Shown: positions 8,696-26,765 of the stretch, piece after piece
Layout of the letters: every line of letters starts with the position of its first letter
Numbering within the stretch: the first letter of the stretch is position 1
Assembly: GCF_001644705.1 (NCBI RefSeq)
Contig: NZ_CP015137.1
Span: forward strand, 4,860,001-4,892,000
From: Dickeya solani IPO 2222
Lineage (GTDB): Bacteria; Pseudomonadota; Gammaproteobacteria; Enterobacterales; Enterobacteriaceae
Length of the DNA: 32,000 nt
Reading direction: 5' to 3'
Made by a program: the position numbers and the translations under genes
The notes under the pieces: model-generated
What the model was told of the DNA's origin: nothing
Database searches by the model: none
The model's input: only the letters and a program-made list of their open reading frames with translations

Positions 8696-9679
8696 ATGAA
8701 TAAAGATTTCACATTTACGATTAAGAGCAGTTGCTTCGATGAAAATTACAACCCCTCCGAAAATACGCGTATCACTACCAACTTTGCTAATTTGGCCAGA
8801 GGAACGAGGCGCCAGGAGAACTTACGCAACACTCTCGTGATGATTGATAATCGTTTCAATACACTGGCGTATTGGGATAACCCCAAAGGAGATCGTTATT
8901 CTGTCGAACTTGAAATCATTTCCGTTGAGATGAATATTGCAGTCGAAGGCAATAGCGATACCTTCCCTGTGATTGAAATATTGAAAACGAATATTGTTGA
9001 CAAAAAAACCAATGAACGCATCGAAGGCATTGTAGGGAATAATTTTTCCTCTTACGTGCGAGATTATGATTTTAGCGTATTACTCCCTGAGCACAATAAG
9101 CATCGCACCGAGTTCGGCACGCCGGATAATTTTGGCGATTTGCATGGAAAAATATTTAAATATTTCACGAGTTCAAACACTTACAAAAATAACTTTAATA
9201 AACAACCTGTTATATGCCTAAGTGTTTCAAGTAAAAACACCTATCATCGGACTGGAAATCAGCATCCTGTATTGGGCATCGAATACCAGCAAAATGACGC
9301 TTCCTTGACCGATCATTATTTCGAAAAAATGGGGTTGCAGGCCCGCTACTTTATGCCTGCAAATAGCGTTGCACCTTTAGCTTTTTATTTTTCTGGTGAT
9401 CTACTGAGTGATTACACTAATCTTGAGCTTATCAGCACTATCAGCACGATGGAGACTTTCCAAAAGATTTACCGACCTGAGATTTACAATGCTAACTCTG
9501 CAGCAGGGCAATACTATCAACCCCACCTGGATCACCAGGATCATTCATTAACAAAAATTGTTTATGACCGGGAAGAACGCAGTCAGTTGGCTATTGAGCA
9601 GGGAAAGTTTACTGAAGAGCACTTCATCAAACCCTACAAGAATATTCTTGAACAATGGTCTGCTCACTACGCGCTTTGA
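8696..9679 (+). CDS. DUF1852-domain protein (MesX-like partner of the core methionine synthase)
   Basis: 327 aa, low-GC. It lies 27 nt upstream of a ~340-aa MetE-C-terminal-like gene, which is the conserved DUF1852 + short methionine synthase pairing. I recognise the family from the size, the pairing and the sequence character, not from a computed search. Confidence 0.65.
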   Translation: MNKDFTFTIKSSCFDENYNPSENTRITTNFANLARGTRRQENLRNTLVMIDNRFNTLAYWDNPKGDRYSVELEIISVEMNIAVEGNSDTFPVIEILKTNIVDKKTNERIEGIVGNNFSSYVRDYDFSVLLPEHNKHRTEFGTPDNFGDLHGKIFKYFTSSNTYKNNFNKQPVICLSVSSKNTYHRTGNQHPVLGIEYQQNDASLTDHYFEKMGLQARYFMPANSVAPLAFYFSGDLLSDYTNLELISTISTMETFQKIYRPEIYNANSAAGQYYQPHLDHQDHSLTKIVYDREERSQLAIEQGKFTEEHFIKPYKNILEQWSAHYAL

Positions 9680-9706
9680 TTCACCAAAAAGATAAGGTCA
9701 CCTGTT

Positions 9707-10738
9707 ATGAAAACATTGCTACCCACCTCGACTGCCGGCAGTTTGCCCAAACCGTCCTGGCTCGCAGAGCCTGAGAAACTGTGGTCCCCCTGGAAATTAC
9801 AAAACGAAGAGTTAATTGAGGGGAAAAAAGATGCTCTGAGTTTGTCGCTGTTTGATCAACTGCGTGCAGGTATTGATATTGTCAGCGATGGCGAACAAAC
9901 GCGCCAACACTTTGTCACGACGTTTATTGAGCACCTTAGCGGCGTGGATTTTGAGAAACGTGAAGTCGTTAAAATTCGTAATCGCTATGACGCGAGCGTA
10001 CCGACGGTTGTCGGTGCGGTGGCGCGCCAAAAGCCCGTTTTTGTTGAAGATGCCAAATTCCTACGTCAACTCACCAGGCAACCTATTAAATGGGCTCTGC
10101 CAGGGCCGATGACGATGATCGATACGCTCTATGATAACCACTATAAAAGCCGCGAAAAACTGGCCTGGGAATTCGCCAAAATTCTCAATCAGGAAGCGAA
10201 AGAGTTAGAAGCAGCGGGTGTGGATATTATTCAGTTTGATGAGCCAGCGTTTAATGTCTTTTTTGATGAGGTGAATGATTGGGGTATCGCCGCGTTAGAA
10301 AGAGCGATTGAAGGGCTGAAATGTGAGACGGCGGTACACATCTGCTACGGATATGGCATCAAAGCCAACACCGACTGGAAAAAGACGTTGGGGTCAGAGT
10401 GGCGGCAATATGAAGAAGCGTTTCCCAAACTGCAAACATCCAATATCGATATCATCTCGCTGGAATGCCATAACTCGCGTGTTCCCATGGATCTGCTTGA
10501 ACTGATTCGCGGTAAAAAAGTGATGGTCGGGGCCATTGACGTGGCAACCAATACCGTCGAGACACCAGAAGAAGTCGCCGATACGCTACGAAAAGCACTT
10601 CAGTTTGTCGATGCCGACAAGCTCTACCCGTCGACCAACTGTGGCATGGCCCCCTTATCTCGTCGGGTAGCCACAGGCAAGCTCAATGCGTTAAGTGCAG
10701 GCGCAGAAATCATCCGCGGAGAACTCTCGGCTAAATAA
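9707..10738 (+). CDS. core-MetE type (cobalamin-independent, MetE C-terminal domain only) methionine synthase, MesD-like
   Basis: 343 aa: MKTLLPTSTAGSLPKPSWL...IVSDGEQTRQHFV...IQFDEPAF...VHICYGY...ISLECHNS...PSTNCGM. This is the UROD/MetE-like barrel with the His/Cys/Glu/Cys Zn-ligand pattern (HICYG, ECH, NCGM). It is a single-domain protein, as in the Mes families. Confidence 0.75.
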   Translation: MKTLLPTSTAGSLPKPSWLAEPEKLWSPWKLQNEELIEGKKDALSLSLFDQLRAGIDIVSDGEQTRQHFVTTFIEHLSGVDFEKREVVKIRNRYDASVPTVVGAVARQKPVFVEDAKFLRQLTRQPIKWALPGPMTMIDTLYDNHYKSREKLAWEFAKILNQEAKELEAAGVDIIQFDEPAFNVFFDEVNDWGIAALERAIEGLKCETAVHICYGYGIKANTDWKKTLGSEWRQYEEAFPKLQTSNIDIISLECHNSRVPMDLLELIRGKKVMVGAIDVATNTVETPEEVADTLRKALQFVDADKLYPSTNCGMAPLSRRVATGKLNALSAGAEIIRGELSAK

Positions 10739-10901
10739 CATCGCCCAATAATAGATCATTTAAACAAAACTCAGTCCGTGTCAGGCGATCTGATCAATCG
10801 CCAAATCACCTAAACCACCAACCGGACTGAGTGATTTAGTTGGGCCTACTCTTGACCTCGTAAGGGTGTCGGTCTTACCAACCCCCTTGCAGTGAACGAC
10901 G

Positions 10902-12547: not shown

Positions 12548-12805
12548 ACTTCGAATGTCCTTCCGCGTGATTAATCGTTTAAAAACAATACACCAGCTTA
12601 ATATCTTTTTGCTACTGGCAGCAGCGCACTGGACACACAGAATGCACTAACGTCCTCGACATCAAAAAACAGTTTGACGGCAACCTGGACGCGCTTCATG
12701 CCCCTACCGGCGTACTCTGTTGGCACTTTGCTGCGTATTTAGCTATAAATCAGAATACATCTGGTTGCTATATCACTCAAAACAGACGCTCATGAGGGTA
12801 CTGTA

Positions 12806-13072
12806 ATGAAGCAGACTCACTCCATTCCTGAAATCTACAACCCTGATGTTCCATACGGTGCAAAATGTGAAATTATGGATCAACTGTGCCAGGCGCTGGC
12901 GAGACATAAAGGAATGGAGCGCTTCGAACTGCGTGATTACCTGTTGGAGAGGATCCACGTGGATTTCGAAAATCTGGAGAATAATCCTGTAGGGATGCTT
13001 CTGCTGTATGAATACCTACACAGCCAGCGTCCGGGAGTCTGCATCCGTTCTACGGAAAAACAGCTCAATTGA
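12806..13072 (+). CDS. hypothetical protein (88 aa, orphan)
   Basis: ATG with GAGGG 7 nt upstream, in the low-GC island. I recognise no motif. Confidence 0.4.
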   Translation: MKQTHSIPEIYNPDVPYGAKCEIMDQLCQALARHKGMERFELRDYLLERIHVDFENLENNPVGMLLLYEYLHSQRPGVCIRSTEKQLN

Positions 13073-13303
13073 TCCTCACATGTCACGTAGACATTTAATA
13101 TATAAGTATGACGGCACATCGTTATCGTGACCTAACGCGCCAATATCCCTTCTGACAGCGGCAAATCCAAAAGATGGGGCGTGTCTGCTGTGAGCAAGGA
13201 GCGGACTCTGGTAGAGTCATCTAACTCAGTCAATACTTAATCGCCCAATGCCGTGTTTTACAGACGAGTCTATAACTTATTCACTTATAGGAGGATTTAA
13301 AGG

Positions 13304-13486
13304 TTGGATACTAAAAGAAGATTAAAGCGAGCATTAAGCGCTATCGATGATGCTATGTCCACATTACAACGTGCTCGTTCTAAAGTAGAAGAAGGTCGCT
13401 CAGATATATCACGTGCTTTAAATGAGTTAGATGATGCTGAGACTAATATACGCAAAGCTATTCGTGAACTGCCTGATGATATCTAG
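13304..13486 (+). CDS. hypothetical 60-aa helical-hairpin protein with internal duplication
   Basis: TTG start 9 nt after a perfect AGGAGG (13289..13294), followed by a strong terminator. The sequence shows two related halves: RALSAIDDAMSTLQRA and RALNELDDAETNIRKA. Confidence 0.5.
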   Translation: MDTKRRLKRALSAIDDAMSTLQRARSKVEEGRSDISRALNELDDAETNIRKAIRELPDDI

Positions 13487-13497
13487 ATATAGTAGAT

Positions 13498-13526
13498 ATG
13501 GCCGCAATTCAGCGGCCATTCTTTTA
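13498..13526 (+). terminator. rho-independent terminator (ATGGCCGC-AATTCA-GCGGCCAT + TCTTTT)
   Basis: An 8-bp GC-rich stem followed by a T-run, read directly. It sits between the convergent 60-aa ORF and the HerA gene. Confidence 0.7.
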
Positions 13527-13567
13527 GTATTTTGACTATCACACCTAGCTAGCGGTGATAACTCATC

Positions 13568-15334
13568 TTATTTTCTCCAACGTTCAATAACCTTCGCGAA
13601 GACAATATCACGCCATGCTGCATTCCACTCACTATGTACTTTTACGCTCTGGGAATGTGGTTCTGGGGAAGGTAGTGGCATCTTGATCACCGCTGGCAGC
13701 AACACGGCATCGCCAACTACTACGCATTCTCCGGGAGCTAGATTAGGTAAGATTTCCGTAATCGCATTGGCATTATCTGGAAATAGTCGTCGCACGTATG
13801 ATTGATCGGCATCGTTAGTAAGACGCAGAGAAATGAAGTTGTTACACTGAGCAAATATTGTTTCCGATACTTCTGAAGGACGCTGACTTACTACCATCAG
13901 ACTTAAGCCATATTTTCGTCCCTCCTTTGCTATGCGTTCGATGGACTTCCGAGATGCCCGATATGAGGCATGATTATCTCGAGGTACATAGTTGTGCGCC
14001 TCTTCACACACCAACATAACAGGGATATCATTGAGTTTGCCAAGCGCATGCCGCAATTTAGAATAATGAAAGCAAAAATCAAAAATTAGGCGAGAAATCA
14101 AGCTTACAGTCACGCTAAGAACTTCGAACGGGACTCCACTCAAGTCGACAACAGTAACGTTCGATTTGTGGAGATAGCCAATAAATTGCTTCATTAGCGT
14201 CTCAAAGTCCTCAGTCAAATGTTCCTTCCCATCAGCTTTCTTAGTATTCAAAAGGAACCGAAGACGTTTATCAGCCAATTTCGCTTCCAACCGCGAAACA
14301 AACCTATTGAACTCTCCATTGAAAGGCCCATTAGTCGCCTTGGATGCAGCTGCGCTCGAGGTAGCAACAAAATCGTGGACTTTTTCGAAATAAATATTCC
14401 GATCAGACACCAAATCTCCATTAGCTAGCTTAGGTTTATCCTCTCCGGGTAGCCGACCAATGACCTCCCTATTCATATTTTCAATGAAGTTGTAAACCTC
14501 TTTAATCGAGAAATAAACAGGGGTGTCGTAAGTCACTTCTGGAACAGCCGGGTTATGCTTTTCTTTGTTCAGCACAACAGCATGCTTGAACTGACTAACT
14601 TGATTGTGAGAGTTCGCTTCGTTACTTTCGATAAACATACTTTCGAGTTCTTCAGAGTTCATCAGCCAGTATGGGAGTTGGAGGGAGTCAATATCTAATC
14701 GGCTCAGAGTAAAAGACTCTTCAGCCTGTAAAGTAAATGCCGCGGTATATTCATCATGAATATCAAATATCACCACATGCGAGTTATTTTGCATGTTCTT
14801 GTTGCTGTTTTTACGTTGAGATATTCCAACTATACCCTGCAACACGCTAGCAACAGTACACGACTTACCGGAACCAGTGGATCCTACAACCGCAATATGC
14901 TTACTGAAGAATCTATTACCACTGATCATAAGATTAATGGCTTTATTCATAGAAAGTTTGCCAAGAGGGAAATCATGATCACCATCAGCCGAGAATATCT
15001 TGTCTAAGGTATCATTTTCCGCAACGAATGCATGTTCAGTTGGAACCGGTAAAAGGAGACTGCTACGGTCAAAACTTTTGTCATCCACTAAAGTTCCTAT
15101 AGCTTGACATTCAATCTGGAAGTTCCAGACCGTTTTTCCGTCAGGTGTGGTTGTATTTGTACCTTTAATGTTTCGGATGGTAACGATAGTAAAATCATGA
15201 TTTCCCTGTGCAATCTTAAGAAAACGGCCAACCTGAAGATTTTCTTTATTTTTCTCAAATACTTCAAGGTTATCAACAGCAACTACGACAGCCTCTGGCG
15301 CACACGAAAGCACTGCTCCAATTTTAATAAGCAT
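13568..15334 (-). CDS. HerA/FtsK-type (DUF87-like) hexameric ATPase, defence-system motor component
   Basis: 588 aa. Walker A IAVVGSTGSGKS, Walker B-like VMLVCEEAHNYVP, then LSLMVVSQRPSEVS and FISLRLTNDADQ, as in HerA helicases. An N-terminal ~130-aa barrel-like region is present. The ATG overlaps the upstream gene by 11 nt. Confidence 0.8.
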   Translation of the reverse strand: MLIKIGAVLSCAPEAVVVAVDNLEVFEKNKENLQVGRFLKIAQGNHDFTIVTIRNIKGTNTTTPDGKTVWNFQIECQAIGTLVDDKSFDRSSLLLPVPTEHAFVAENDTLDKIFSADGDHDFPLGKLSMNKAINLMISGNRFFSKHIAVVGSTGSGKSCTVASVLQGIVGISQRKNSNKNMQNNSHVVIFDIHDEYTAAFTLQAEESFTLSRLDIDSLQLPYWLMNSEELESMFIESNEANSHNQVSQFKHAVVLNKEKHNPAVPEVTYDTPVYFSIKEVYNFIENMNREVIGRLPGEDKPKLANGDLVSDRNIYFEKVHDFVATSSAAASKATNGPFNGEFNRFVSRLEAKLADKRLRFLLNTKKADGKEHLTEDFETLMKQFIGYLHKSNVTVVDLSGVPFEVLSVTVSLISRLIFDFCFHYSKLRHALGKLNDIPVMLVCEEAHNYVPRDNHASYRASRKSIERIAKEGRKYGLSLMVVSQRPSEVSETIFAQCNNFISLRLTNDADQSYVRRLFPDNANAITEILPNLAPGECVVVGDAVLLPAVIKMPLPSPEPHSQSVKVHSEWNAAWRDIVFAKVIERWRK

Positions 15335-16502
15335 TAGTCATCCCCATCATATATTTGATTTCATCAAGTTTTTCGGCACCTAATATTTCAAGGTTTACAT
15401 CCTGTAAGTCTAAACTCGTAATATCTCCATCTCCAATTACAAAGAAATCGTCCGCCTTGGTTTCAATATAAAGATTTTTATAGTCATCCCACCGAATGAA
15501 GCGCAGAACGAACTCTTTTTTATCCTTGGTGACAATCGGATCACGAAAAAAAAACCTCCCTGAGAAAGTATTTACTGGTCGTCCAAGGTTTGGGATTACA
15601 TCCTTCCCAATTAATCGCTCCGCAATTTCATCAAATATAGATTGAGAAACATCCAATATAAAGATTGGAGTATGTGTATGCACCTGTTTAAAATGATACT
15701 TATCAACAAAAGATTTTATAAAGAGAACGATTTGTTTATCAAACTGCTCTAGGAGATCAGGGAAAATAAGTATAAATCGCAAACGAACGTTTGCATTCAG
15801 GTTTTCTTTTAATTGTTTACGTCGTGCCTCCAAAACCTTCTGACGCGTTTTTAACGCAAGAGTCCATTGAGAAACCGCTGTAGACCTAATCCGGCGTAAT
15901 GTTTCCAGAAAAAAACTCTTGGTGATTTTCCTAAGATTTTCATCATGTTTGATACTAAGATCACCAATGATCTGAATGGCGTTTGGATAGAATAGTGTTT
16001 CCACTTCACTCTTATTAAATCCTAGATCTACAAGCAGCTTTACATTTTCTTCCATCAAATCGTCATACTTTGGCGTTACCGTTATAGAAAACACCTTAAG
16101 GAATTCATTAATATCAACACCAGTAGCCTCCGCTATCAAATTTTGTAAATCTTTACTTTTAGAACTGAGGGCACCATTCAACTCTACAGCAGAAATAAGG
16201 ATTGAAGATGTATTCGGAAAATGAGCGAAAAGATGATAATTTATTTTTGCATTGGGATTTGACTTGAAATGCTTCATCATCTGAAGTAGAGGATCGTAAA
16301 GAATGCTAGGCGTATATTTAGCCTGTGCTTCATGGTATTTACACTGAATGGCCTTGGTTCCGGTAAATGTAGCGACTTCGATATCTTCGACAATCCCTTC
16401 TAAAGTAATTTCCGCCTCATCCGCTGCCTTGAGTAGTTCAGCGAGTGTTAGATTAAACTGATATAAGAACCCTTGGATAGTGTAGTCGGCTGAACGCCTC
16501 AT
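15324..16502 (-). CDS. DUF4297 / Cap4-like PD-(D/E)xK nuclease-domain protein (effector partner of HerA)
   Basis: 392 aa. The N-terminus ADYTIQGFLYQ followed by GIVEDIEV...AIQCKY gives the GFxYQ ... D/E ... QxK arrangement I associate with Cap4/DUF4297 nuclease domains. The C-terminal ~200 aa is unassigned. AAGAGG RBS. The gene is translationally coupled to the HerA gene. Confidence 0.6.
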   Translation of the reverse strand: MRRSADYTIQGFLYQFNLTLAELLKAADEAEITLEGIVEDIEVATFTGTKAIQCKYHEAQAKYTPSILYDPLLQMMKHFKSNPNAKINYHLFAHFPNTSSILISAVELNGALSSKSKDLQNLIAEATGVDINEFLKVFSITVTPKYDDLMEENVKLLVDLGFNKSEVETLFYPNAIQIIGDLSIKHDENLRKITKSFFLETLRRIRSTAVSQWTLALKTRQKVLEARRKQLKENLNANVRLRFILIFPDLLEQFDKQIVLFIKSFVDKYHFKQVHTHTPIFILDVSQSIFDEIAERLIGKDVIPNLGRPVNTFSGRFFFRDPIVTKDKKEFVLRFIRWDDYKNLYIETKADDFFVIGDGDITSLDLQDVNLEILGAEKLDEIKYMMGMTNAY

Positions 16503-16956
16503 TTAAATAAACCTCTTTAAGTCTAAAAACGCTAAACTCCAGAATTACTTACACATAGGCTAACACTATAAGCCCACCGTTTAGATTCTGCTAGCCTGGC
16601 AGCATGCTAATGATCGCACTTTATGGAATTTAATCCTCAGAGATAGGGGGATTAGCAAAAGTTGACAATTGACTTTGGCTAAATCTGTATAGCGATCATG
16701 TTTATAACGAACTGTATTTGATAGTTAACCCATGGCCCCTGACGCACATACCGAGGTAACCCAATACGTATAACAAATAAGCTAAACTGCACTTATTCTT
16801 CATCGTTGCGCTAAATTCAATAGCTTTGAGAGGCCCGCTCCTGACACTTAACCGCCATCAGAAATAATCACACCGAATATAATATCCAATTAAAATTAAT
16901 TAGAGACTAATACAATACCTCTGATTTATAAAACAACCCACCATCCCACTATAGAC

Positions 16957-17139
16957 CGTTATAAAAAAAGCCCCCAACCATCAGACCAGGGGCTTTTGAA
17001 TACCATTCAAATCACGGCAGAACACGGCGGCGAAAATCTCGACGATTTCGGCGTGAGTCACTTTTTCTGGGTGATCAGACCGCTGGCATCTTTTAACATA
17101 TTTGCCACCAGCAAGAAGCTATCTCTTCTGAGATACCGT
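16957..17139. repeat. diverged direct-repeat copy A of the ADH 3' end + terminator
   Basis: By eye this aligns with 17814..17998. I estimate about 85% identity in the terminator and last ~25 codons, decaying further in. The estimate is not computed. Confidence 0.75.
17017..17139 (-). pseudogene. 3' fragment (about 41 codons) of an iron-type alcohol dehydrogenase gene
   Basis: The minus strand translates to ...[41 protein letters not shown]. The intact gene's C-terminus is ...[39 protein letters not shown]. The stop codon is replaced by TGC. There is no upstream coding continuation, because it abuts the doc stop codon. Confidence 0.7.
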
Positions 17140-17517
17140 TTATTTTTCCACCCGTTGTCTTAATTGTTCGGCGAGTTCCGACACCAGGCATTCTCCGGTT
17201 GCCGCCTTAATGGTGAGTTCTTCCAGCGAATTATCGTTATCGACAATCAATATGCCATTGCGGCGCAAAAATGTCATGGTAACAAAAAAAGCAGTGCGTT
17301 TATTGCCATCATTAAAAATATGACCACGAGCAATAGTTACCCAATACGTCGCCGCCAACTCAAACAGTTCGGTCACACCTTCATAATAAAGACGGTTTTG
17401 TACTCGATAAATCAACTCCTCAGCCCGACCCGGATCAGCCATACCCACCACACCAGGCAACACCTGCAAAATACGATCATGGAAGTCAATGACGTCCTGC
17501 GCACTCACCCATTTCAT
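17140..17517 (-). CDS. doc: Doc toxin (Fic/Doc family kinase, death-on-curing)
   Basis: 125 aa with the Fic/Doc motif HIFNDGNKRTA. It has a 4-nt ATGA overlap with the upstream antitoxin gene. Confidence 0.9.
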   Translation of the reverse strand: MKWVSAQDVIDFHDRILQVLPGVVGMADPGRAEELIYRVQNRLYYEGVTELFELAATYWVTIARGHIFNDGNKRTAFFVTMTFLRRNGILIVDNDNSLEELTIKAATGECLVSELAEQLRQRVEK

Positions 17518-17735
17518 CTGTCGGCGAGCGCTTTGATTGTGTGTCCGTGGCGCTGCATGATGAAATCGAATTCAGCGTCTAATCTGGCTTTCTGATAAGC
17601 CTCAAACTCTGCTTTGGGGATGAGTACAGCCGAGGTGCCATCCCGACGCTTAATCTCTACCGGCTCACCGCTGGCCGCCGTATCAATGACTGTCGCAATA
17701 TTTTGCCGGGCTTCAGTAATGGTATAAGTCTTCAT
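17514..17735 (-). CDS. phd: Phd/YefM-family antitoxin
   Basis: 73 aa. MKTYTITEARQNIATVIDTAASGEPVEIKRRDGTSAVLIPKAEFEAY is a typical Phd/YefM N-terminal fold. It is translationally coupled to doc. Confidence 0.85.
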   Translation of the reverse strand: MKTYTITEARQNIATVIDTAASGEPVEIKRRDGTSAVLIPKAEFEAYQKARLDAEFDFIMQRHGHTIKALADR

Positions 17736-17749
17736 GGCACCCCCTTAAA

Positions 17750-17770
17750 ATGTACATTTCAAGTGTACAT
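17750..17770. promoter_or_regulatory. candidate phd-doc operator: two TGTACA palindromes 13 bp apart
   Basis: ATGTACAT lies at 17750..17757 and GTGTACAT at 17763..17770, which is 15-35 nt upstream of the phd ATG. TA operons are classically autoregulated at tandem palindromes. Confidence 0.5.
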
Positions 17771-17813
17771 CTGATTAGTAAAATAGACCATCAGCTATGC
17801 CGCGTTAATGCGA

Positions 17814-17998
17814 CGTTATAAAAAAAAGCCCCCAACCATCAGGCCGGGGGCTTTTCAATACCATCCAAATCACAATCAGAACGCGGCGGCGAAAATCTCG
17901 ACGATTTCAGCGTGAGTCGCTTTTTTCGGGTTGGTCAGACCGCAGGCGTCTTTCAGCGCGTTGTCCGCCAGAATGCTGAAGTCTTCTTCTTTCACGCC
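17814..17998. repeat. direct-repeat copy B (functional 3' end + terminator of the ADH gene)
   Basis: Partner of 16957..17139. The two copies bracket the 674-bp phd-doc cassette (17140..17813). Confidence 0.75.
17819..17856 (-). terminator. rho-independent terminator of the ADH gene
   Basis: Stem AGCCCCC (17827..17833) / GGGGGCT (17846..17852). On the minus strand it is followed by a T8 run. It lies about 20 nt after the ADH stop. Confidence 0.8.
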
Positions 17999-19024
17999 CA
18001 GATCTTTCAATCCGGCCGGGATACCGACATCGTGCGCCATCTGGCTGATCGCCGCGATCGCCGCATCAGCCGCCTGCCGATCGCTCAGCCCGGCGACATC
18101 CACACCCAGCGCTACCGCAACGTCTTTCAGACGCCCGGCGGCCACAGTTGCGTTGTAGCGTTCAACGTGCGGCAGCAGCACCGCGTTGCACACCCCGTGC
18201 GGCAGGTTATAGAAGCCGCCCAACTGGTGCGCCATCGCATGAACATATCCCAGCGATGCGTTGTTGAACGCCATGCCGGCCATAAACTGGGCGTAAGCCA
18301 TTTGCTCGCGCGCCACCATGTTTTTGCCGTCTTTGACCGCATCACGCAGATGGTCGCGGATTAGCTCAATCGCTTTGATCGCCACCGCATCGGTAATCGG
18401 GTTAGCGGCGGTCGAGACATAGGCTTCAATGGCGTGGGTTAAGGCGTCCATCCCGGTAGCGGCGGTCAGCGAGGCCGGCATGCCGACCATCAGGACTGGG
18501 TCGTTGACGGACATCACCGGCGTCACGTTTTTATCCACGATCGCCATTTTCACATGACGCACTTCATCGGTAATGATGCAGAAACGGGTCATTTCAGACG
18601 CGGTGCCCGCCGTGGTGTTGATGCCGATCAGCGGCAACTGCGGCTTGGCGGAAACATCCACGCCTTCATAGTCGGCGATCTCGCCGCCGTTGGTCGCCAG
18701 CAGCGCGATCCCTTTGGCGCAGTCGTGGGAAGACCCCCCGCCCAACGACACCACGCAATCGCTGTGGTTCGCCTTCAGAATCTTCAGACCAGCATCCACG
18801 TTGGCGACGGTCGGGTTCGGCTGCACGCCATCATAAATGGCGCTGTCGATCTGGTACTTTTTCAGCAGTTGCTGCACGGAGGCGGCGACGCCGATTTTGT
18901 TTAGCACGCCGTCAGTCACGATCAAGGCATGTTTGAAACCCTGCAACTGAATCTGCCTGGCCGCTTCCTCTAACGCACCCTCACCCATCAGGTTCAAGGC
19001 CGGAATATAAAATGCGCTGCTCAT
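17876..19024 (-). CDS. yiaY: iron-containing (group III) alcohol dehydrogenase, YiaY / ADH-II-like
   Basis: 382 aa. There are long stretches matching what I remember of E. coli YiaY and Zymomonas AdhB: [96 protein letters not shown]. Confidence 0.85.
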
Positions 19025-19395
19025 AGATCACCATCCATTTATTACAGAGTCTTAACTTACAGCCATCCTAGCATTGACATTTCCCGGCAAAATTGACCGA
19101 AAACAAACTTCATCCACTCTTCGCTAAAAGGCTGAACCGTTTTTTCTGAGGAATATCATGGAGGAATGAAAAAACCGCACCGCACAAATAAACAATTATT
19201 TTACTTTAGAACTGGACATAAAACCGGCGTAACGGGGCGAACGGTATTTTCGTTGTAAACAAGCGGGTCAATCTGCCGTTATTACATAGATTACGGCCTG
19301 AAAAGGTGTTACATCGGCGCATCGCGCCAGACCAAACCGTATCAGTATTAGTGAACGGATACAGGCTGTCGTATCATGACCACTCGGGGCTTTTA

Positions 19396-19866
19396 ATGTC
19401 GACAATACCCATGACGAATGAGATCACATTTAAGGTGATCGGCGATATCAGTACGGCCAGCGCCTGTAGCGCTGCGCTGGTGGTACTCGTCGATCCGTAC
19501 GGAAAAATCCTGCTGCAATTGCGGGATGCAGATAAAGACATTCCCTACCCCGGTTACTGGTCGCTGTTCGGCGGCGGACTTGAAGGTGAAGAGACGCCCG
19601 CCCAGGCGGCGGTGCGTGAATTAAATGAAGAAATCGGCATCATCCTTGACGATCGGGATCTGACGCCGCTGATCGTCACGCTGTCGGATGACAGTAAAAA
19701 CGCCCGGATTTATATCTTCTCCCTGACAACAACGCTGACGCCGGGCGATATCGTCCTGCAGGAAGGCTCCGGGTTCGCCTTCTTCACCCGGGAACAAATC
19801 GCGCATTTGCCGGTTGTGCCCTACGTCATGCGCGCTCTGAACCTGCTCTGGCGCAACACGCACTGA
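19396..19866 (+). CDS. NUDIX hydrolase
   Basis: ORF 19306..19866. I prefer the ATG at 19396 (MSTIPMTNE...), though 19411 is also possible. The Nudix box GGGLEGEETPAQAAVRELNEEIG matches GX5EX7REUXEEXGU. Confidence 0.8.
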   Translation: MSTIPMTNEITFKVIGDISTASACSAALVVLVDPYGKILLQLRDADKDIPYPGYWSLFGGGLEGEETPAQAAVRELNEEIGIILDDRDLTPLIVTLSDDSKNARIYIFSLTTTLTPGDIVLQEGSGFAFFTREQIAHLPVVPYVMRALNLLWRNTH

Positions 19867-19937: not shown

Positions 19938-20615
19938 TTAGTGCCGGTTTCTGACCAGCTGATAACGACGGGTCAGATACTCAACCGGCGCGCTCCAGAT
20001 ATGCACCAGCCGGCAGAACGGGAACAGCAGGAACAGCGTCATCCCCAGCACCAGATGCAGGCGGAAAATCAGCGCCACGCCATCCAGATGCGCCGCCGCG
20101 CCGCCGCGGAACGTCACTACCGTCTGCGCCCAGTTCACCAGCTTCATCATCTCGCTGCCGTCCATGTGTTGCGCGGAAAACGGGATAGTCAGCAGCCCCA
20201 GCGCCGCCTGAATCACCAGCAGCGACATGATCAAGATGTCGCCGGTGGTTGACGTGGCACGCACCCGCGGATTCGTCAGCCGACGCTTCAGCAACAGCAC
20301 GCCGCCCACCAGCGTCAGCACGCCACACGTCCCGCCGCCGATCATCGCCATCTTCTGTTTTATTTCCAGCGGCAGGAACGACTCGTACATCCAGTGCGGC
20401 GTCATCATGCCCAGAAAATGGCCGCCCAGCACGCCCAAAATCCCGAGGTGAAACAGGTTCGAGGCCAGCCGCATGCCCTTCTTATCCAGCATCTGGCTGG
20501 AGCCGGCGCGCCAGCTGTACTGACCGTAGTCGTAGCGCAGCCAGCTGCCGATCAGAAAAACCGCGCCGGCGATGTAGGGGTAGATATCAAACAAAAACAG
20601 ATTGAGATAATGCAT
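19938..20615 (-). CDS. narI: respiratory nitrate reductase A, gamma (cytochrome b) subunit
   Basis: 225 aa, polytopic membrane protein with conserved His residues. It is the last gene of the narGHJI-ordered cluster and overlaps the narJ stop by 1 nt. Confidence 0.9.
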
Positions 20616-21334
20616 CAGCAGTCTCCTTTGGCGCGTGACGCGTCAAGGTTCAGGTAGTGCGGCGCCACCGCGTCGACGAAACGACGCTGATGGCCAGTCT
20701 GTTGCGCCGGGGCGCAGCCCGCGTCGGCCAGAAAGCGGACCTGCTCCTCTTCCCACACCGCATCCAGCGCCTGCGGCGTGTCATCACGCTCCTCTTCCGC
20801 CACCTTCGCCGCCACGGATTCACGCGCGGGCTCGAATGCCGCCAGCGTTAGCAGCAGATCCGGCAACAAAGCATACTCGCTGTCGCGCTGGCGCAACCGC
20901 TCCGCCAGCAGCGTCAGGATCGGCGCAATATCGCGCAACCCATCGCGCACGGTCAGCGGATCGCGCAGCGTCAGGTACTCCAGATACAGCGGCAGGAAAT
21001 CCGGCAGTTCGCGGCAATCCAGCTCCAGCCCGACCTCACGGTACTGCGCCAGCAAATCCACCATCGCCTGACCACGGTCGCGCGACTCGCCGTGCACATG
21101 TTCGAACAGCAGCAGCGACAGCGCGCGGCCGCGGTCGAACAAATCGCTGTAGCGCGCCTGCCGGTCCAGCAGGTCGCCCCGATAAAAGTCGGCGATGAAC
21201 TGCAGCAGTTGCGCGCTCTGCTGTAGCGGCAGTTCGTCGGCCTGTTCCAGCGCTTCCAGCATGGCCTGCTGTTGCTGCCACAATTCCGCATCCGGATACT
21301 CCAGCAGCCGGGCGATAACGCGAAGACTGATCAT
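20615..21334 (-). CDS. narJ: nitrate reductase molybdenum-cofactor assembly chaperone
   Basis: 239 aa. [12 protein letters not shown]...[37 protein letters not shown]...[16 protein letters not shown] is near-identical in pattern to E. coli NarJ. Confidence 0.92.
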
Positions 21335-22893
21335 GACTTGTTCTCCTGCATCCGCCGGTTGCTCATGGTCTGGGTTTTGCTGGTGACGTCGATGGCATCG
21401 ATACGCCGGCTGTTGAACAGATTGAACGACGAATCGCTGCCGTGGCAGCCGTCGCCAAAGCTGAAGCCGCAGCCGCGGGTTTCCGGAAACGCTTCCCGCG
21501 CCAGTTCCCGGTGGCTGGACGGCACCACAAAGCGATCCTCATAGTTGGCGATCGCCAGATAGCGGTACATTTCCTCGGCCTGCGCCTGCGTCAACCCAAC
21601 CTGCTCCAGCGCGCTGACATCGGTGACCTGCTCCACCGTCTGCGCCCGCTTGTAATGGCGCATCGCCAGCATACGCCGCAACGCGCGCAGCACCGGGCGG
21701 GTGTCGCCTGCGGTCAGCAGATTAGCCAGATACTGTACCGGGATACGCAGGCTCTCCACGTCCGGCAGTACGCCGCTGTGCGCCAACTGGCCCGCGTCGG
21801 CGGCGGACTGGATCGGCGACAACGGCGGCACGTACCACACCATCGGCAACGTGCGATATTCCGGGTGCAGCGGCAGCGCCAGTTGCCATTCCACCGCCAG
21901 CTTGTACACCGGAGATTGCTGCGCCGCGTCAATCACGCTGAGCGGAATGCCGTCGCGTTGCGCCTGCGCGATCACCTCAGGGTCGTGAGGGTCGAGGAAA
22001 ATATCCAGTTGACGGCCGTACAGATCGGTCTCGCTTTCTGCCGATGCCGCCTGCTCAATACGGTCGGCATCGTAAAGCAGGACGCCCAGATAGCGGATAC
22101 GCCCGACGCAGGTTTCCGAGCACAACGTCGGCATGCCGGATTCGATACGCGGATAGCAGAAAATACATTTTTCCGACTTGCCGCTCTTCCAGTTGAAATA
22201 GATTTTCTTGTACGGGCAGCCGGTCAGGCACATGCGCCAGCCGCGGCATTTATCCTGGTCGATCAGCACAATGCCGTCTTCCGCCCGTTTGTAGATGGCA
22301 CCGCTCGGGCAGGTGGCGACACAGGCCGGGTTCAGGCAGTGCTCGCACAGTCTGGGCAGGTACATCATGAAGGTGTTTTCGAACTGCCCGTACATCGCCT
22401 TCTGCATGTCGTCGAAGTTCTTATCCTTCGACCGCTTGCTGAACTCGCCGCCCAGATCGTCTTCCCAGTTAGGGCCGTTTTCGATCTTTTCCATACGCTG
22501 ACCGGTAATCAGCGAACGCGGACGCGCCACCGGCTGGTGCCGGCTTTCCCCGGCGCGTTGCAGGTGAGCATAGTCGTAGTCGAACGGCTCGTAATAATCG
22601 TCCAGCGCCGGGACGTCCGGGTTGGCGAAAATCTTCGACAGCACGCCGACGCGGTTGCCCATGCGCGGCACCAGTCGTCCGTTGATTTTGCGGATCCAGC
22701 CGCCCTTCCATTTTTCCTGATCCTCCCAGGCATGCGGATAGCCGGTGCCGGGCTTGGTTTCCACGTTGTTGAACCAGGCGTATTCCATCCCTTCGCGGCT
22801 GGTCCAGACATTCTTACAGGTCACCGAACAGGTATGGCAGCCAATGCATTTATCCAGATTCAGCACCATGCCGACTTGTGAACGAATTTTCAT
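21331..22893 (-). CDS. narH: respiratory nitrate reductase A, beta (Fe-S) subunit
   Basis: 520 aa with four Cys clusters (CIGCHTCSVTC, CEHCLNPACVATCP, CRGWRMCLTGCP, CIFCYPR...C). It has 4-nt overlaps with both narG and narJ. Confidence 0.95.
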   Translation of the reverse strand: MKIRSQVGMVLNLDKCIGCHTCSVTCKNVWTSREGMEYAWFNNVETKPGTGYPHAWEDQEKWKGGWIRKINGRLVPRMGNRVGVLSKIFANPDVPALDDYYEPFDYDYAHLQRAGESRHQPVARPRSLITGQRMEKIENGPNWEDDLGGEFSKRSKDKNFDDMQKAMYGQFENTFMMYLPRLCEHCLNPACVATCPSGAIYKRAEDGIVLIDQDKCRGWRMCLTGCPYKKIYFNWKSGKSEKCIFCYPRIESGMPTLCSETCVGRIRYLGVLLYDADRIEQAASAESETDLYGRQLDIFLDPHDPEVIAQAQRDGIPLSVIDAAQQSPVYKLAVEWQLALPLHPEYRTLPMVWYVPPLSPIQSAADAGQLAHSGVLPDVESLRIPVQYLANLLTAGDTRPVLRALRRMLAMRHYKRAQTVEQVTDVSALEQVGLTQAQAEEMYRYLAIANYEDRFVVPSSHRELAREAFPETRGCGFSFGDGCHGSDSSFNLFNSRRIDAIDVTSKTQTMSNRRMQENKS

Positions 22894-25800
22894 CGGGCTT
22901 TCTCCTGCAGATGAGGTTGCACATGGGAAGACAGGTCGTCATGGCTGTCCTCATCCAGCCAGTCGATACGGTTCATCTTGCGGACCACCACGAACTCATC
23001 GCGGTTGGAACCGACGGTGCCGTAATAATTAAAGCCATACGCCAGTTGGGCGTAACCGCCAATCATGTGGGTCGGTTTCGGGCAAACGCGCGTGACCGAG
23101 TTGTGGATGCCGCCGCGCTGGCCGGTGACTTCCGAACCGGGCAGGTTCACCAGTCGTTCCTGAGCGTGGTACATCATGGTCATGCCGGACGGAATACGCT
23201 GGCTGACTACCGCGCGGGCGGTCAGCGCGCCGTTGGCGTTAAACACTTCCACCCAGTCGTTGTCGGCGATGGTCAGCTCGCGGGCATCGTCCTCGCTCAG
23301 CCAGACAATCGGACCGCCGCGCCCCAAGGTCAGCATCAGCAGGTTTTCGCTGTAGGTGGAGTGGATACCCCACTTCTGATGCGGCGTCAGGAAGTTGAGC
23401 GCCTTTTCCGGGTTGCCGTTGGGCTTTTTATTCAGCAACGGCTGCGCGGCGCGGGTATCCACCGGCGGGCGATACACCAGCAGGCTCTCGCCGAAGGCGC
23501 GCATCCACTCGTGATCCTGATACAGCTGCTGGCGACCGGAAATCGTGCGCCACGGAATCAGTTCATGCACGTTGGTGTAACAGGCGTTATAAGACACATG
23601 CTCGTCTTCCAGGCCAGACCAGGTCGGGCTGGAAATGATTTTGCGCGGTTGCGCCTGAATATCCCGGAAGCGGATTTTCTCCTCCTCTTTCGGGTGCGCC
23701 AGATGGGTGTGATCGCGCCCGGTGACCTTGCTCAGCGCCGCCCAGGCTTTTACCGCCACCTGGCCGTTGGTTTCCGGCGCCAGCGACAGGATCACCTCGG
23801 CGGCGTCTATCGCACTGTCGATTCTCGGCCGGCCGGCGGCCGGGCCGTCTTCCTGCACCCGGTTCAGACGCTTGAGGAAATCGACTTCGTTTTGAGTATT
23901 CCAGCTGATGCCTTTACCGCCGTTGCCCAGCTTATCCAGCAACGGGCCCAGCGAGGTAAAGCGGGCATACAGGTTCGGGTAGTCGCGCTCCACCGTCATG
24001 ATGTGGGGTGCGGTTTTGCCCGGAATCAGATCGCACTCGCCTTTTTTCCAGTCTTTCACGCCCAGCGGCTGCGCCATTTCGGCCGCCGAGTCATGCTGAA
24101 TCGGCAGCGTCACCACATCGGTTTCCACCCCCAGATGCCCCTGACAGACGCGGGAGAAGGTTTTCGCCAGCCCTTTATAGATTTCCCAGTCGGTTTTCGA
24201 CTCCCAGGCCGGGTCAACCGCCGCCGACAGCGGGTGGATGAACGGATGCATGTCCGAGGTGTTCATGTCGTCCTTTTCATACCAGGTGGCGGTCGGCAAC
24301 ACAATGTCGGAATAAAGACAGGTGCTGGACATACGGAAATCAAGCGTGACCACCAGATCCAGCTTGCCTTCGCCGCCCTGCGCGCACCATTCCACCTCTT
24401 CCGGCGTCACGCCGCCCTGTTGGCCCAAATCCTGCCCCTGAATGCCGTGTTCGGTGCCCAGCAGGTACTTGAGCATGTACTCATGTCCCTTACCGGACGA
24501 CCCCAGCAGGTTGGAACGCCAGATAAACAGGTTGCGCGGGAAGTTTTCCGGGTTGTCCGGCTGCTCGGCGGCAAAACGCAGACGGCCGGCTTTCAGTTCC
24601 GCCACAGTGTAATCCTGCGGCGACATCCCGGCGGCGGCGGCCTGTTCGGCGATATGCAGCGGGTTTGCGCCCAGCTGCGGCGCCGACGGCAACCAGCCCA
24701 TGCGCTCGGCGCGCACGTTGAAATCGATCAGACTGCCGCTGAAACGGGATCGGTCCGCCAGCGGCGACAGCAGTTCCTGCGGCGCGATGGTTTCGTAACG
24801 CCACTGGCTGGAGTGGTTATAGAAGAACGAGGTGCTGTTCATATGACGCGGCGGACGCTGCCAGTCCAGCCCGAACGCCAGCGGCAGCCAGCCGGTTTGC
24901 GGGCGCAGTTTCTCCTGGCCGACATAATGCGCCCAGCCGCCGCCGCTCTGCCCGACACAACCGCAGAAGATCAGCATATTGATAATGCCGCGGTAGTTCA
25001 TGTCGAGGTGATACCAGTGGTTCATGCCCGCGCCGACGATAATCATCGAACGGCCGTGGGTCTTGTCGGCGTTATCGGCGAACTCACGGGCGATACGGAT
25101 GATATTCTGCCGCGACACGCCGGTAATCTGCTCCGCCCACGCCGGGCTGTACGCTTTCACCTGATCGTAGTCGGTCGCGCACTGCGCATCGTCCAGACCG
25201 CGATCCACACCGTAGTTGGCGAGCGTCAGGTCGTAAACGCTGGTAACCAGCGCTTCCTGACCATCGGCCAGCGTCAGGCGTTTGACCGGCAACCGATGCA
25301 GCAGCACTTCATCCAGTGCGACGCTGGCGAAGTTTTCACTGGATGCGCCGCCAAAATACGGGAAGCCGACGGACACCACCTCGTCGTGGTGGCCCAACAG
25401 GCTCAGTTGCAGATTGACGTCGCGCTGGTCGCTACCTTCGCGCTGTTCCAGATTCCATTTGCCCTGCTCGCCCCAGCGATAACCGATGGAGCCCTGCGGC
25501 GCGACCAGTTCGCCGGTCGGTTCATCAATGGCGATGGTTTTCCATTCCGGGTTGTTCTCCTGCCCCAGTTTTCCCACCAGATCGGCGGCGCGCAGCAAAC
25601 GCCCGGCGGCGTAGCTGCCATCCGCACGTTCCTCCAGCAGCACCAGCATCGGCATGTCGGTATAGCGGCGCACGTAATCGGTGAAGTACTGGCGCGGCTG
25701 TTTGAGATGGAACTCATTGAGGATCACGTGGCCCATCGCCAGCGCCAGCGCGCTGTCGGTGCCCTGCTTCGGATTCAGCCACTGATCGCACAGCTTGGCG

Positions 25801-26663
25801 ATTTCCGCATAATCCGGGGTGATGGCGACGGTTTTGGTGCCTTTATAGCGTACTTCCGCGAAGAAGTGGGCGTCCGGGGTGCGGGTTTGCGGTACGTTGG
25901 AACCCCAGGCGATGATGTACGACGAGTTATACCAGTCGGCCGATTCCGGCACGTCGGTCTGTTCGCCCCAGGTTTGCGGCGACGCGGGAGGCAGGTCGCA
26001 GTACCAGTCGTAAAAACTGAGGCATACCCCACCCAGCAACGACAGGTAACGGGCGCCGGCTGCGTAGGACACCATCGACATGGCCGGAATCGGCGAAAAG
26101 CCAATCACCCGGTCCGGACCGAAGGTTTTGGCGGTATACACGTTGGCGGCGGCGATCAGTTCATTCACCTCCTGCCAGTCGGCACGCACAAAACCGCCGC
26201 GCCCGCGTACCTGTTTGTATTCCTTCGTTTTGCTCGCGTCGCCGACAATCGACGCCCAGGCGTCCACCGGGTCGGCATGATGCTGACGCGCCTCGCGCCA
26301 CAGCTTCATCAAGCGCTTACGCACCATCGGATATTTCAACCGATTGGCGCTGTAGAGATACCAGGAATAGCTGGCGCCGCGCGGGCAACCACGCGGTTCA
26401 TGATTCGGCAGATCCGGCCGGGTGCGGGGGTAATCGGTTTGCTGCGTCTCCCAGGTGACCAGCCCGTTTTTGACGTAAATCTTCCAGCTGCACGAACCGG
26501 TACAATTGACGCCATGCGTCGAACGTACCACCTTGTCATGTTGCCAGCGGCTACGATAGCCGTCTTCCCAGTCACGGTTGGTATTCAGCGTCTGGCCGTG
26601 ATCGCCGGAAAACGGCTCGGCCAGCTGTTTGAAATAACGTAACCGGTCAAGAAATTTGCTCAT
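22890..26663 (-). CDS. narG: respiratory nitrate reductase A, alpha (Mo-bisMGD) subunit
   Basis: ORF 22890..26729. The ATG at 26663 gives MSKFLDRLRYFKQ..., the canonical NarG N-terminus, with a GGAG-complement 8 nt upstream. HGVNCTGSCSW is the FS0 cluster motif. Length is about 1257 aa. Confidence 0.95.
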   Translation of the reverse strand: MSKFLDRLRYFKQLAEPFSGDHGQTLNTNRDWEDGYRSRWQHDKVVRSTHGVNCTGSCSWKIYVKNGLVTWETQQTDYPRTRPDLPNHEPRGCPRGASYSWYLYSANRLKYPMVRKRLMKLWREARQHHADPVDAWASIVGDASKTKEYKQVRGRGGFVRADWQEVNELIAAANVYTAKTFGPDRVIGFSPIPAMSMVSYAAGARYLSLLGGVCLSFYDWYCDLPPASPQTWGEQTDVPESADWYNSSYIIAWGSNVPQTRTPDAHFFAEVRYKGTKTVAITPDYAEIAKLCDQWLNPKQGTDSALALAMGHVILNEFHLKQPRQYFTDYVRRYTDMPMLVLLEERADGSYAAGRLLRAADLVGKLGQENNPEWKTIAIDEPTGELVAPQGSIGYRWGEQGKWNLEQREGSDQRDVNLQLSLLGHHDEVVSVGFPYFGGASSENFASVALDEVLLHRLPVKRLTLADGQEALVTSVYDLTLANYGVDRGLDDAQCATDYDQVKAYSPAWAEQITGVSRQNIIRIAREFADNADKTHGRSMIIVGAGMNHWYHLDMNYRGIINMLIFCGCVGQSGGGWAHYVGQEKLRPQTGWLPLAFGLDWQRPPRHMNSTSFFYNHSSQWRYETIAPQELLSPLADRSRFSGSLIDFNVRAERMGWLPSAPQLGANPLHIAEQAAAAGMSPQDYTVAELKAGRLRFAAEQPDNPENFPRNLFIWRSNLLGSSGKGHEYMLKYLLGTEHGIQGQDLGQQGGVTPEEVEWCAQGGEGKLDLVVTLDFRMSSTCLYSDIVLPTATWYEKDDMNTSDMHPFIHPLSAAVDPAWESKTDWEIYKGLAKTFSRVCQGHLGVETDVVTLPIQHDSAAEMAQPLGVKDWKKGECDLIPGKTAPHIMTVERDYPNLYARFTSLGPLLDKLGNGGKGISWNTQNEVDFLKRLNRVQEDGPAAGRPRIDSAIDAAEVILSLAPETNGQVAVKAWAALSKVTGRDHTHLAHPKEEEKIRFRDIQAQPRKIISSPTWSGLEDEHVSYNACYTNVHELIPWRTISGRQQLYQDHEWMRAFGESLLVYRPPVDTRAAQPLLNKKPNGNPEKALNFLTPHQKWGIHSTYSENLLMLTLGRGGPIVWLSEDDARELTIADNDWVEVFNANGALTARAVVSQRIPSGMTMMYHAQERLVNLPGSEVTGQRGGIHNSVTRVCPKPTHMIGGYAQLAYGFNYYGTVGSNRDEFVVVRKMNRIDWLDEDSHDDLSSHVQPHLQEKAR

Positions 26664-26765
26664 CCGGACTCTCCTGCTGCGGAACCTGACGGTTCCTGTC
26701 GTTATGAAGTACACGTGGGTTTTGCTCACTGAGGCGTAGGGTAGCCAGCTGGGTAAGTGTCAGAA

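Follow-up and report, generated by a model that had tools for sequence, protein, structure and literature searches.

We propose that the phd-doc toxin-antitoxin (TA) operon of Dickeya solani IPO 2222, together with the two direct repeats that bracket it, is probably the scar of an old duplication and insertion in the Dickeya lineage, with later decay, gene conversion, exchange of the cassette and turnover of the cargo beside it, a reading in which we place moderate confidence. The operon lies in a 32,000-nucleotide stretch (contig NZ_CP015137.1, positions 4,860,001 to 4,892,000 of the forward strand), which we refer to as the window and number from its first letter, and the features described here are on its minus strand unless stated otherwise. 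Read in that direction, the nitrate reductase genes narGHJI are followed by a gene for an Fe-dependent alcohol dehydrogenase (ADH), its terminator (terminator B), an operator palindrome, phd, doc, a second copy of the ADH 3' end with its own terminator (copy A and terminator A), ~450 nt of non-coding DNA, the DUF4297 and HerA genes, a spacer of ~1 kb, and genes for GST and a ketopantoate-reductase-like protein. The ADH open reading frame (17876..19024) is intact and encodes 382 aa, with matches to the Pfam families Fe-ADH (E 1e-47) and ADH_Fe_C (E 2e-78), and its last ~38 codons form the coding part of the upstream repeat, copy B.

Copy A (16957-17129) and copy B (17814-17990) are in direct orientation, each comprising an ADH 3' end and a terminator, and they align with a Smith-Waterman score of 191, as compared with 17.6 +/- 2.4 (maximum 28) for 300 shuffles; blastn gives 88% identity over 140 nt. 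The gapless blocks 16963-17015 versus 17821-17873 and 17018-17072 versus 17877-17931 are 92 and 91% identical, respectively, the block 17062-17111 versus 17922-17971 is 74% identical, and the copies share perfectly identical blocks of 22 and 25 nt. The similarity extends more than 110 nt into the ADH coding sequence, far past the terminator hairpin, and is bimodal, with about 65% identity over the 5' 73 nt and about 90% over the 3' ~100 nt. An initial annotation of this DNA, made from the letters without database searches, had described such a repeat with an identity of about 85% that decays toward the 5' side; pairwise alignment bears out the repeat, including its extension beyond the hairpin, and refines the decay to the two-level pattern given above.

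Copy B consists of the last ~38 ADH codons (17879-17990), the stop codon (17876-17878), terminator B and, probably, ~47 nt past the T-run (17766-17813), giving a total extent of 17766..17990. Copy A (16916..17129) has the same composition, with ~38 codons that carry a -1 frameshift and have lost the stop, terminator A, and a probable post-terminator segment of ~47 nt (16916-16956). The frameshift sits in an AAAAAAG run, between ...QKK and VTHAE..., the stop was lost by a 1-nt deletion in TGA, and the copy A-type C-terminus reads ...DSFLLVANMLKDASGLITQKK.... The initial annotation had read copy A as a single peptide without a stop that begins exactly at the doc stop codon; the lost stop stands, but the quoted peptide spans two frames, and recognizable homology begins ~10 nt past the doc stop, at about 17129. 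At the other end, similarity continues past the T-run for ~47 nt (A from 16916, B from 17766) to the motif AATCAGA(G/T)GTA, which borders the phd operator. This extension has z = 4.6-6.9 for the copy A of the D. solani window, the only copy A for which it is significant under strict scoring, and lenient scoring gives partial support in two more species, so that the repeat probably includes the ~47 nt beyond the terminator up to the operator edge.

The DNA between the repeats amounts to 674 bp and, as the initial annotation had it, holds only the promoter/operator with phd and doc as the sole genes, with ~10 nt to spare at the doc end. There is no further repeat copy between ADH and GST, and no third copy that would bracket the cargo. 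The duplication is equally not a simple target-site duplication of a transposon or insertion sequence (IS), as had also been recognized, since it covers ~180-225 nt where 2-15 bp would be expected, and neither inverted repeats nor a transposase are present here. The 30-nt hairpin motif occurs exactly twice in the window (0 expected) and is therefore not a dispersed element of the repetitive extragenic palindrome (REP) type. An element of the REP or bacterial interspersed mosaic element type was thus rejected, on the two occurrences in 32 kb, a count that refers to the window, and on the similarity across 110 nt of ADH coding sequence. An integron gene cassette was rejected as well, as an integrase is lacking, the repeats on either side consist of ADH sequence and terminator, and no Rfam family reaches its gathering score.

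The age of this arrangement is indicated by a series of related loci (locus numbers in brackets) that was built from protein searches and look-ups of contigs carrying the exact protein. The locus is essentially identical in other D. solani genomes (L001, L003, L004). D. dadantii 3937 (L002) has both copies, with an IS in terminator B and a cargo of a ParA-like ATPase and SIR2. D. chrysanthemi (L086-L089) has both copies, of which copy A keeps its TGA stop, and a metabolic SDR/YCII/SnoaL/AraC block as cargo. In D. dianthicola (L091-L093) the TA is followed by a copy A with an internal deletion of ~110 nt, and beyond it lie genes for a 168-aa protein and an HD-domain protein, or no cargo. Dickeya sp. 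CFBP 2040 (L094) likewise has the TA, here without cargo, and in its copy A the sequence between a pair of GAAAAG motifs has been lost. In Musicola paradisiaca (L090), a 356-bp insert separates the ADH terminator from a second copy of it, after which come the phd promoter and 21 codons from the start of phd, and the sequence then runs into a deletion. Only one ADH end and terminator are present in D. aquatica (L105), where an AlbA_2/HATPase_c_4 gene and then GST come immediately after, with no trace of the TA or of copy A in that locus. In D. zeae (L085) the ADH end is likewise single, unrelated genes lie beyond it, and the ADH locus has no TA. Lonsdalea-type genomes (L005, L106) have ADH with a different terminator and no TA at the locus. 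Truncated ADH genes were not seen among the loci compared.

Judging from these alignments, copy A is evidently one old feature that is common to all five TA-bearing Dickeya lineages examined and that is decaying differently in each. Its orthology in five lineages with lineage-specific decay argues for an old duplication-insertion scar rather than a recent import. The initial annotation had viewed copy A as an allelic ADH 3' end from another genome, a view that does not agree with its orthology in at least five Dickeya lineages, with the lack of any match to outgroup ADH genes, or with the finding that the nearest relative of its conserved part is always the resident copy B; the search of copy A against relatives for a donor-type ADH allele, which that annotation had suggested, found none. 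Its other proposal, that the ADH downstream junction be compared across strains, revealed a single end without TA, TA only, and TA plus cargo. The more general idea that the 3' end of ADH is a hotspot with a footprint of insertion or recombination agrees well with what was found, in that exchange tracts start and end there, an IS lies in terminator B, the terminator of Musicola is split by its 356-bp insert, and the cargo is variable.

The bimodal identity of the two copies has a plausible explanation in gene conversion. The comparison took in both copies from D. solani and both from D. chrysanthemi, four sequences in all. Of the informative sites, 12 in the 5' part pair the copies by orthology (A with A, B with B) and 2 by genome, and in the 3' part 3 pair them by genome and 0 by orthology (5' versus 3', Fisher p = 0.015). 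In D. chrysanthemi, copy A shows 5/96 differences from the copy B of the same genome and 11/97 from the copy A of D. solani. Moreover, the 5' part of copy A is 55-70% identical to every ADH gene examined, and these genes are 85-97% identical among themselves, so the 5' part is further from the ADH genes than they are from each other, which fits neutral decay better than another functional allele. It appears that the 5' part drifted as a pseudogene and that the 3' ~100 nt of A and B were homogenized within genomes by gene conversion, and the repeat would still be ~90% identical over this 3' stretch because of such intragenomic conversion.

The TA cassette has a history that differs from that of the genes around it. 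With the window as reference, synonymous divergence (dS) from D. dianthicola and D. chrysanthemi is 0.17 and 0.43 for narJ, 0.21 and 0.59 for narI, and 0.28 and 0.80 for ADH, but 0.65 and 0.29 for phd and 1.12 and 0.07 for doc. Hence, in its core genes the window is near D. dianthicola and far from D. chrysanthemi, and the cassette, above all doc, is the reverse; among the species that share copy A, ADH dS reaches 0.8-0.9. Divergence from D. chrysanthemi falls stepwise from 23% in ADH to 12% in its last 41 codons, 9% in the promoter, 6% in phd and 2% in doc, and then is 22% right after the doc stop. The last difference within doc is at 17182 and dense differences set in from 17138, which places the right edge of the exchange tract between these positions, while the left edge is a gradient; relative to D. 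dianthicola, divergence climbs from about 17940, within the last ~20 ADH codons. The incongruent dS of cassette and core genes indicates that the cassette was exchanged between species, and phd-doc alleles are, on this sequence comparison, evidently swapped between Dickeya species by homologous recombination, the core genes around them much less readily. The exchanged object is evidently the TA, sometimes with the adjoining ADH end, and not copy A. Breakpoints placed in the repeats themselves were considered, and this placement was softened since the right edge falls at 17182-17138 and the left edge is gradual.

The exchanged cassette encodes a Phd/Doc type II TA system, with a Fic-fold toxin that has the Doc-type motif H-x-F-x-(D/N)-(A/G)-N-(G/K)-R and a small Phd/YefM antitoxin gene coupled directly upstream of it. 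The promoter/operator of phd (17736..17790), recognized from the sequence and from the alignment of paralogues, includes the palindrome ATGTACATTTCAAGTGTACAT at 17750-17770. The phd gene (17514..17735, 73 aa) matches Pfam PhdYeFM_antitox (E 5e-12) and the structures of phage P1 Phd (E 2e-11), and it overlaps doc by 4 nt (ATGA). The doc gene (17140..17517, 125 aa) matches Pfam Fic (E 7e-12) and P1 Doc 3k33 (E 1e-33), to which residues 1-121 align with the intact catalytic HIFNDGNKR motif opposite HIFNDANKR. The exact Doc protein is present in 42 Dickeya contigs. Truncation of Doc at the junction, considered in view of paralogues at the yicC locus that are 2-10 residues longer, was dropped, as P1 Doc has 126 aa versus 125 aa here.

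The orthologous operon of D. dadantii 3937, phd-doc(Dda), is at the same locus with 97.5% DNA identity, shares the antitoxin-toxin order with the 4-nt overlap, and has been studied experimentally (PMC8198452); the genes described there (DDA3937_RS11885/RS11880) were matched to L002 by strand and approximate position. In that report, phd-doc(Dda) is co-transcribed from a weak promoter and autorepressed with the toxin as co-repressor, overproduction of Doc slows the growth of D. dadantii, and the operon gave no stabilization of an unstable mini-F plasmid in E. coli. The autoregulation and neutralizable toxicity reported for the orthologue would by analogy be expected of the operon in the window. 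The likeness to phage P1 phd-doc is more distant and consists of the P1-type Fic motif in Doc and the match of Phd to P1 Phd, and it does not include plasmid stabilization, which the 3937 operon did not give in E. coli (PMC8198452). In the part of PMC8198452 at hand, "alcohol dehydrogenase" and "transposase" have 0 occurrences each, there is no account of the flanking ADH 3' duplication, of a separate yicC-locus clade or of inter-species exchange, and the survey counts all Pectobacteriaceae homologues as one system. When the cassette plus copy A was used as query, plasmids yielded only 65-72% phd-doc homologues, none spanning the ADH remnant, and phages yielded no match.

Both copies of the duplicated end retain a terminator. 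Terminator B (17816..17860, motif at 17825-17854) is the intrinsic terminator of ADH, with a GC-rich 15-bp stem, a 4-nt loop and a U8 run (fold -29.8 kcal/mol, z -6.1), and terminator A (16957..17000, motif at 16967-16996) is the same hairpin with two stem differences and a U7 run (fold -22.6 kcal/mol, z -3.0). These calls were made by RNA folding, and a consensus terminator scan missed both hairpins. The terminator A hairpin is kept in 4/5 lineages, including D. dadantii, D. chrysanthemi and CFBP 2040, and we infer that copy A now serves as the 3' untranslated region (UTR) of the phd-doc operon, with terminator A as the predicted operon terminator.

The hairpins have also undergone other changes. 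In D. dadantii 3937 (L002:8236-9676) an IS, with HTH_Tnp_1 and rve transposase genes, sits within the terminator B hairpin. The terminator core flanks the Musicola insert (L090:11175-11576) on both sides as a direct repeat of 23 nt (22/23), and this 356-bp sequence has no copies in any locus compared and no credible Rfam match. The cassette, the Musicola insert and the D. dadantii 3937 IS thus represent three independent insertions at or beside the ADH terminator hairpin. In Dickeya sp. CFBP 2040 (L094:7673-7702), the terminator B hairpin corresponds to the reverse strand of the hairpin of other species, as would result from inversion of the stem-loop at its site, and terminator A of that genome has the usual orientation.

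The source of the cassette is suggested by a paralogous phd-doc clade (Doc 74-79% identical) that adjoins yicC in Lonsdalea, Pectobacterium and D. zeae/oryzae; a Salmonella phd-doc copy is apparently in the same yicC region. Homology between the cassettes at the ADH and yicC loci is limited to operator through doc, and the A/B repeat apparently ends where this homology begins, which fits a minimal operator-phd-doc unit that was copied in with duplication of its target. No convincing long flanking duplications were found at the yicC-locus cassettes, where there is only a 36-nt, 72% AT-rich match in one of them (L099), and hence the duplication is not a general property of the clade. The yicC-locus phd-doc operons (L095-L104) mark the far edge of a segment whose content varies among McrBC-like genes, AbiEii, a 1275-aa helicase plus HsdR-like protein, P4 cII/Bro-N, and NA37 plus an unknown protein. 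In Lonsdalea the variable segment at the yicC locus is empty. The TA family thus borders variable slots at two unrelated loci.

Insertions with long target duplications that arise by illegitimate recombination or template switching, as well as tandem-duplication junctions, occur in bacterial chromosomes. We suggest that an operon unit of ~640 bp (operator-phd-doc), a paralogue of the yicC cassette, would have inserted ~47 nt downstream of the ADH terminator and duplicated ~180-225 nt of target, from about ADH codon -38 through the terminator. The likeliest route would be one illegitimate event of the template-switch type, and an equivalent outcome would be reached if a tandem duplication or Campbell-type event came first and the second TA copy was then lost. 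The upstream copy B would have stayed the working ADH end and copy A would have become a pseudogene fragment, with terminator A predicted to end the phd-doc transcript and to separate the operon from downstream DNA. The 5' part of copy A would then have drifted, each lineage gaining its own frameshifts or deletions, as the 3' ~100 nt of both copies were homogenized within genomes by gene conversion. The phd-doc alleles would have been exchanged among Dickeya in tracts that start in the ADH 3' end or the promoter region and end at the doc 3' end, and the position after copy A would have become a slot for horizontally acquired modules, independently of the TA. The locus resembles insertions by illegitimate recombination or template switching in having a tight-bordered paralogous segment and a target duplication far longer than any made by a transposase, but the event is too old for junction microhomologies to be seen, so that the likeness is one of resemblance only.

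Several points weigh against this history. The event is too old for the original mechanism to be recovered from sequence, the ending of the doc mRNA at terminator A is a prediction from folding, and gene conversion is deduced from 3-5 informative sites, while selection on the terminator could explain part of the 3' conservation. Support for the ~47-nt extension weakens in D. dadantii and D. dianthicola, and D. chrysanthemi and CFBP 2040 lack it. Sampling comprised one to a few genomes per species, and the TA-less state of D. aquatica and D. zeae may be ancestral, in which case the TA spread by transfer and was not ancestral to Dickeya plus Musicola.

The repeats might instead be the attL/attR footprint of an integrase-bearing island that carried its own ADH 3' end, targeted ADH and later lost everything but phd-doc, although we consider this unlikely. 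The order of gene, element-borne 3' end, element and displaced native end does match that of islands integrating in gene 3' ends, such as those of the Salmonella genomic island 1 (SGI1) type at trmE, dusA and yicC, which show an intact gene, inserted DNA and a displaced direct partial 3' copy (PMC8409611). Both copies contain the perfect 22- and 25-nt blocks, and the paralogous cassette is at yicC, the 3' end of which is a reported target of SGI1-like islands (PMC8409611). However, as compared with the islands so described (PMC8409611), the ADH locus has no integrase, only 674 bp are bracketed, the variable island at 12728-16856 is outside the repeats, and the repeat is long (~180-225 nt) and evolves as a pseudogene with gene conversion. 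Neither integrase nor excisionase nor their remnants occur between the repeats or nearby in nine Dickeya/Musicola loci with phd-doc or a phd remnant, no recombinase domain is found in the genes between ADH and ApbA in the window or in the gene lists of the related loci, and operator-phd-doc takes up all of the space between the repeats.

A different kind of mobility, which we regard as quite unlikely, would need no integrase. The ~200-nt repeats would make phd-doc a mobile cassette that is excised by RecA as a circle (one repeat plus the TA), leaves a scarless site and, taken up as DNA in this form or as a linear equivalent, re-enters the 3' end of ADH in any Dickeya by homologous recombination, with post-segregational Doc toxicity penalizing excision. 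If true, this would account for the sweep of doc (dS 0.07 versus 0.8 for ADH), for the conversion between copies A and B and for the scattered occurrence of the TA, and the scarless ADH-terminator sites of D. aquatica and D. zeae would be the excised state.

It is doubtful, too, that the arrangement arose in two steps, in which phd-doc was inserted into ADH at about codon -38 and the gene was then repaired by homology-facilitated illegitimate recombination with an imported 3' end, which came from another strain along with its terminator and downstream sequence, making copy B the imported copy and copy A the native one. Such a course would yield exactly the observed order and would explain why copy A abuts the doc stop, and an inter-species breakpoint within the last ~20 ADH codons exists at present between the window and D. 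dianthicola. Yet two rare events and an intermediate with a broken ADH would be required, and no truncated ADH is seen among the genomes compared, even though with sequence this old the two-step and one-step courses would look alike.

We also think it very unlikely that the duplicate was kept for an extra role, with the doc 3' UTR as a regulatory RNA or decoy for ADH expression, or with repeats and TA guarding the island. The 3' ~100 nt are ~90% identical across species as well as homogenized with copy B, and the hairpin persists in all but one of the five lineages, but the coding remnant is deleted differently in D. dianthicola and CFBP 2040, there is no Rfam match, the TA persists with varying or missing cargo, and the plasmid result for phd-doc(Dda) is negative (PMC8198452). 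Finally, a recent import of copy A as a foreign allelic ADH 3' end, brought with the TA and/or the defense island, is hardly credible: A differs from B by about 12-19% and recombination at the locus is real, but copy A is orthologous across species whose ADH dS is 0.8-0.9, matches no outgroup ADH, has a 5' part far more divergent than ADH genes are from one another, and carries the frameshift and lost stop.

We return to the duplication-insertion scar and to the DNA that lies beyond copy A. The variable cargo block (12728..16856) is outside the duplication and has a GC content of 37-44%; in the GC profile of the window the value drops from about 60% to this range across roughly 12.5-17.5 kb. 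Its limits are set by the conserved flanks relative to D. dadantii 3937, which end at 16857 and 12727. The block includes the nuclease-like DUF4297 gene (15324-16502; PADLOC PDLC02187, E 1e-42) and the gene for the HerA ATPase (13568-15334; PDLC02188, E 2e-170), adjacent and overlapping at 15324-15334, and these two genes together represent DUF4297-HerA, which is a characterized anti-phage system (PMC11291478). The remainder (12728-13567) has two small plus-strand open reading frames of no credible family (12806-13072, 88 aa; 13304-13486, 60 aa), and a 17-nt inverted repeat is present at 13217-13233/13418-13434. At 90% identity, HerA clusters with proteins from Morganellaceae (Proteus, Providencia) and Cedecea, and this distribution together with 37-44% GC in a genome of ~60% GC points to a recent horizontal acquisition of the DUF4297-HerA cargo. 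In the window, the cargo block is accompanied by neither mobile-element genes nor flanking repeats.

The slot between the ADH/TA block and GST or Meth_synt_2 is occupied by DUF4297-HerA, the ParA-like ATPase with SIR2, the HD-domain pair, the AlbA_2/HATPase_c_4 gene, metabolic genes, or nothing. It resembles defense-island hotspots between core genes in that varied cargo is found at one position, and is unlike them in that the cargo here comes without mobile-element genes or flanking repeats and the slot is filled with or without the TA. Four different cargos occur beside the TA, which is also retained without any (D. dianthicola L092 and CFBP 2040). In L092 there is an N exactly at the jump from the post-copy-A spacer to the Meth_synt_2 flank, and its cargo-free state may be a scaffolding join. 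In the TA-less D. aquatica, a 463-aa AlbA_2/HATPase_c_4 (Schlafen-like) gene that is convergent with ADH is at the cargo position (L105:7203-8594). In D. solani L003 (L003:11552-12961), DUF4297 is shortened by a ~480-bp deletion and the HerA gene is broken into two parts, beside an intact TA; this locus was considered as a different cargo, which was rejected as it is the same DUF4297-HerA island in decayed form. In D. solani L004, ADH and DUF4297 are called as split or shortened, which may represent real frameshifts or assembly errors.

The initial annotation had further suggested that the TA may stabilize the adjacent defense island. The TA kept with varied or no cargo, the D. aquatica cargo without a TA, the L003 cargo that decayed beside its TA, the position of the cargo outside the repeats, and the 3937 operon that did not stabilize mini-F in E. 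coli (PMC8198452) argue against such a role, if indirectly, and it appears to be unsupported.

The remaining features of the window are of less direct concern. The nitrate reductase genes narGHJI are at 19938-26729 and a plus-strand NUDIX gene (19306-19866) lies between them and ADH. The database name for the ADH protein is L-threonine dehydrogenase, and orthologues were found in Dickeya, Musicola and Lonsdalea. There is no tRNA in the 32 kb, and no Rfam family reaches its gathering score anywhere in the window. A second low-GC stretch (38-47%) at 8000-10800 holds MesX and a cobalamin-independent methionine-synthase-like gene, and with its position conserved in Musicola and most Dickeya it is evidently resident DNA and not an island.

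All of the components described herein are of known kinds, and the known mechanisms of Phd-Doc and DUF4297-HerA are unchanged by our findings. What is new is the specific history, with its long target duplication, terminator reuse, gene conversion and TA sweeps, and it corrects the reading of copy A as a foreign allele imported with a defense island. As a weaker extension of the unlikely idea of an integrase-free mobile cassette, the phd-doc clade might sit habitually at the edge of variable defense slots, at the ADH and yicC loci, for a functional reason. The locus provides a clean and datable example of a chromosomal TA operon fixed beside a core gene, in which a spare ADH end would have been reused as an operon terminator and kept similar to the working copy by gene conversion. 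The adjacent defense slot turns over independently of the TA, which provides context for the reading of TA-plus-defense neighborhoods as functional units.

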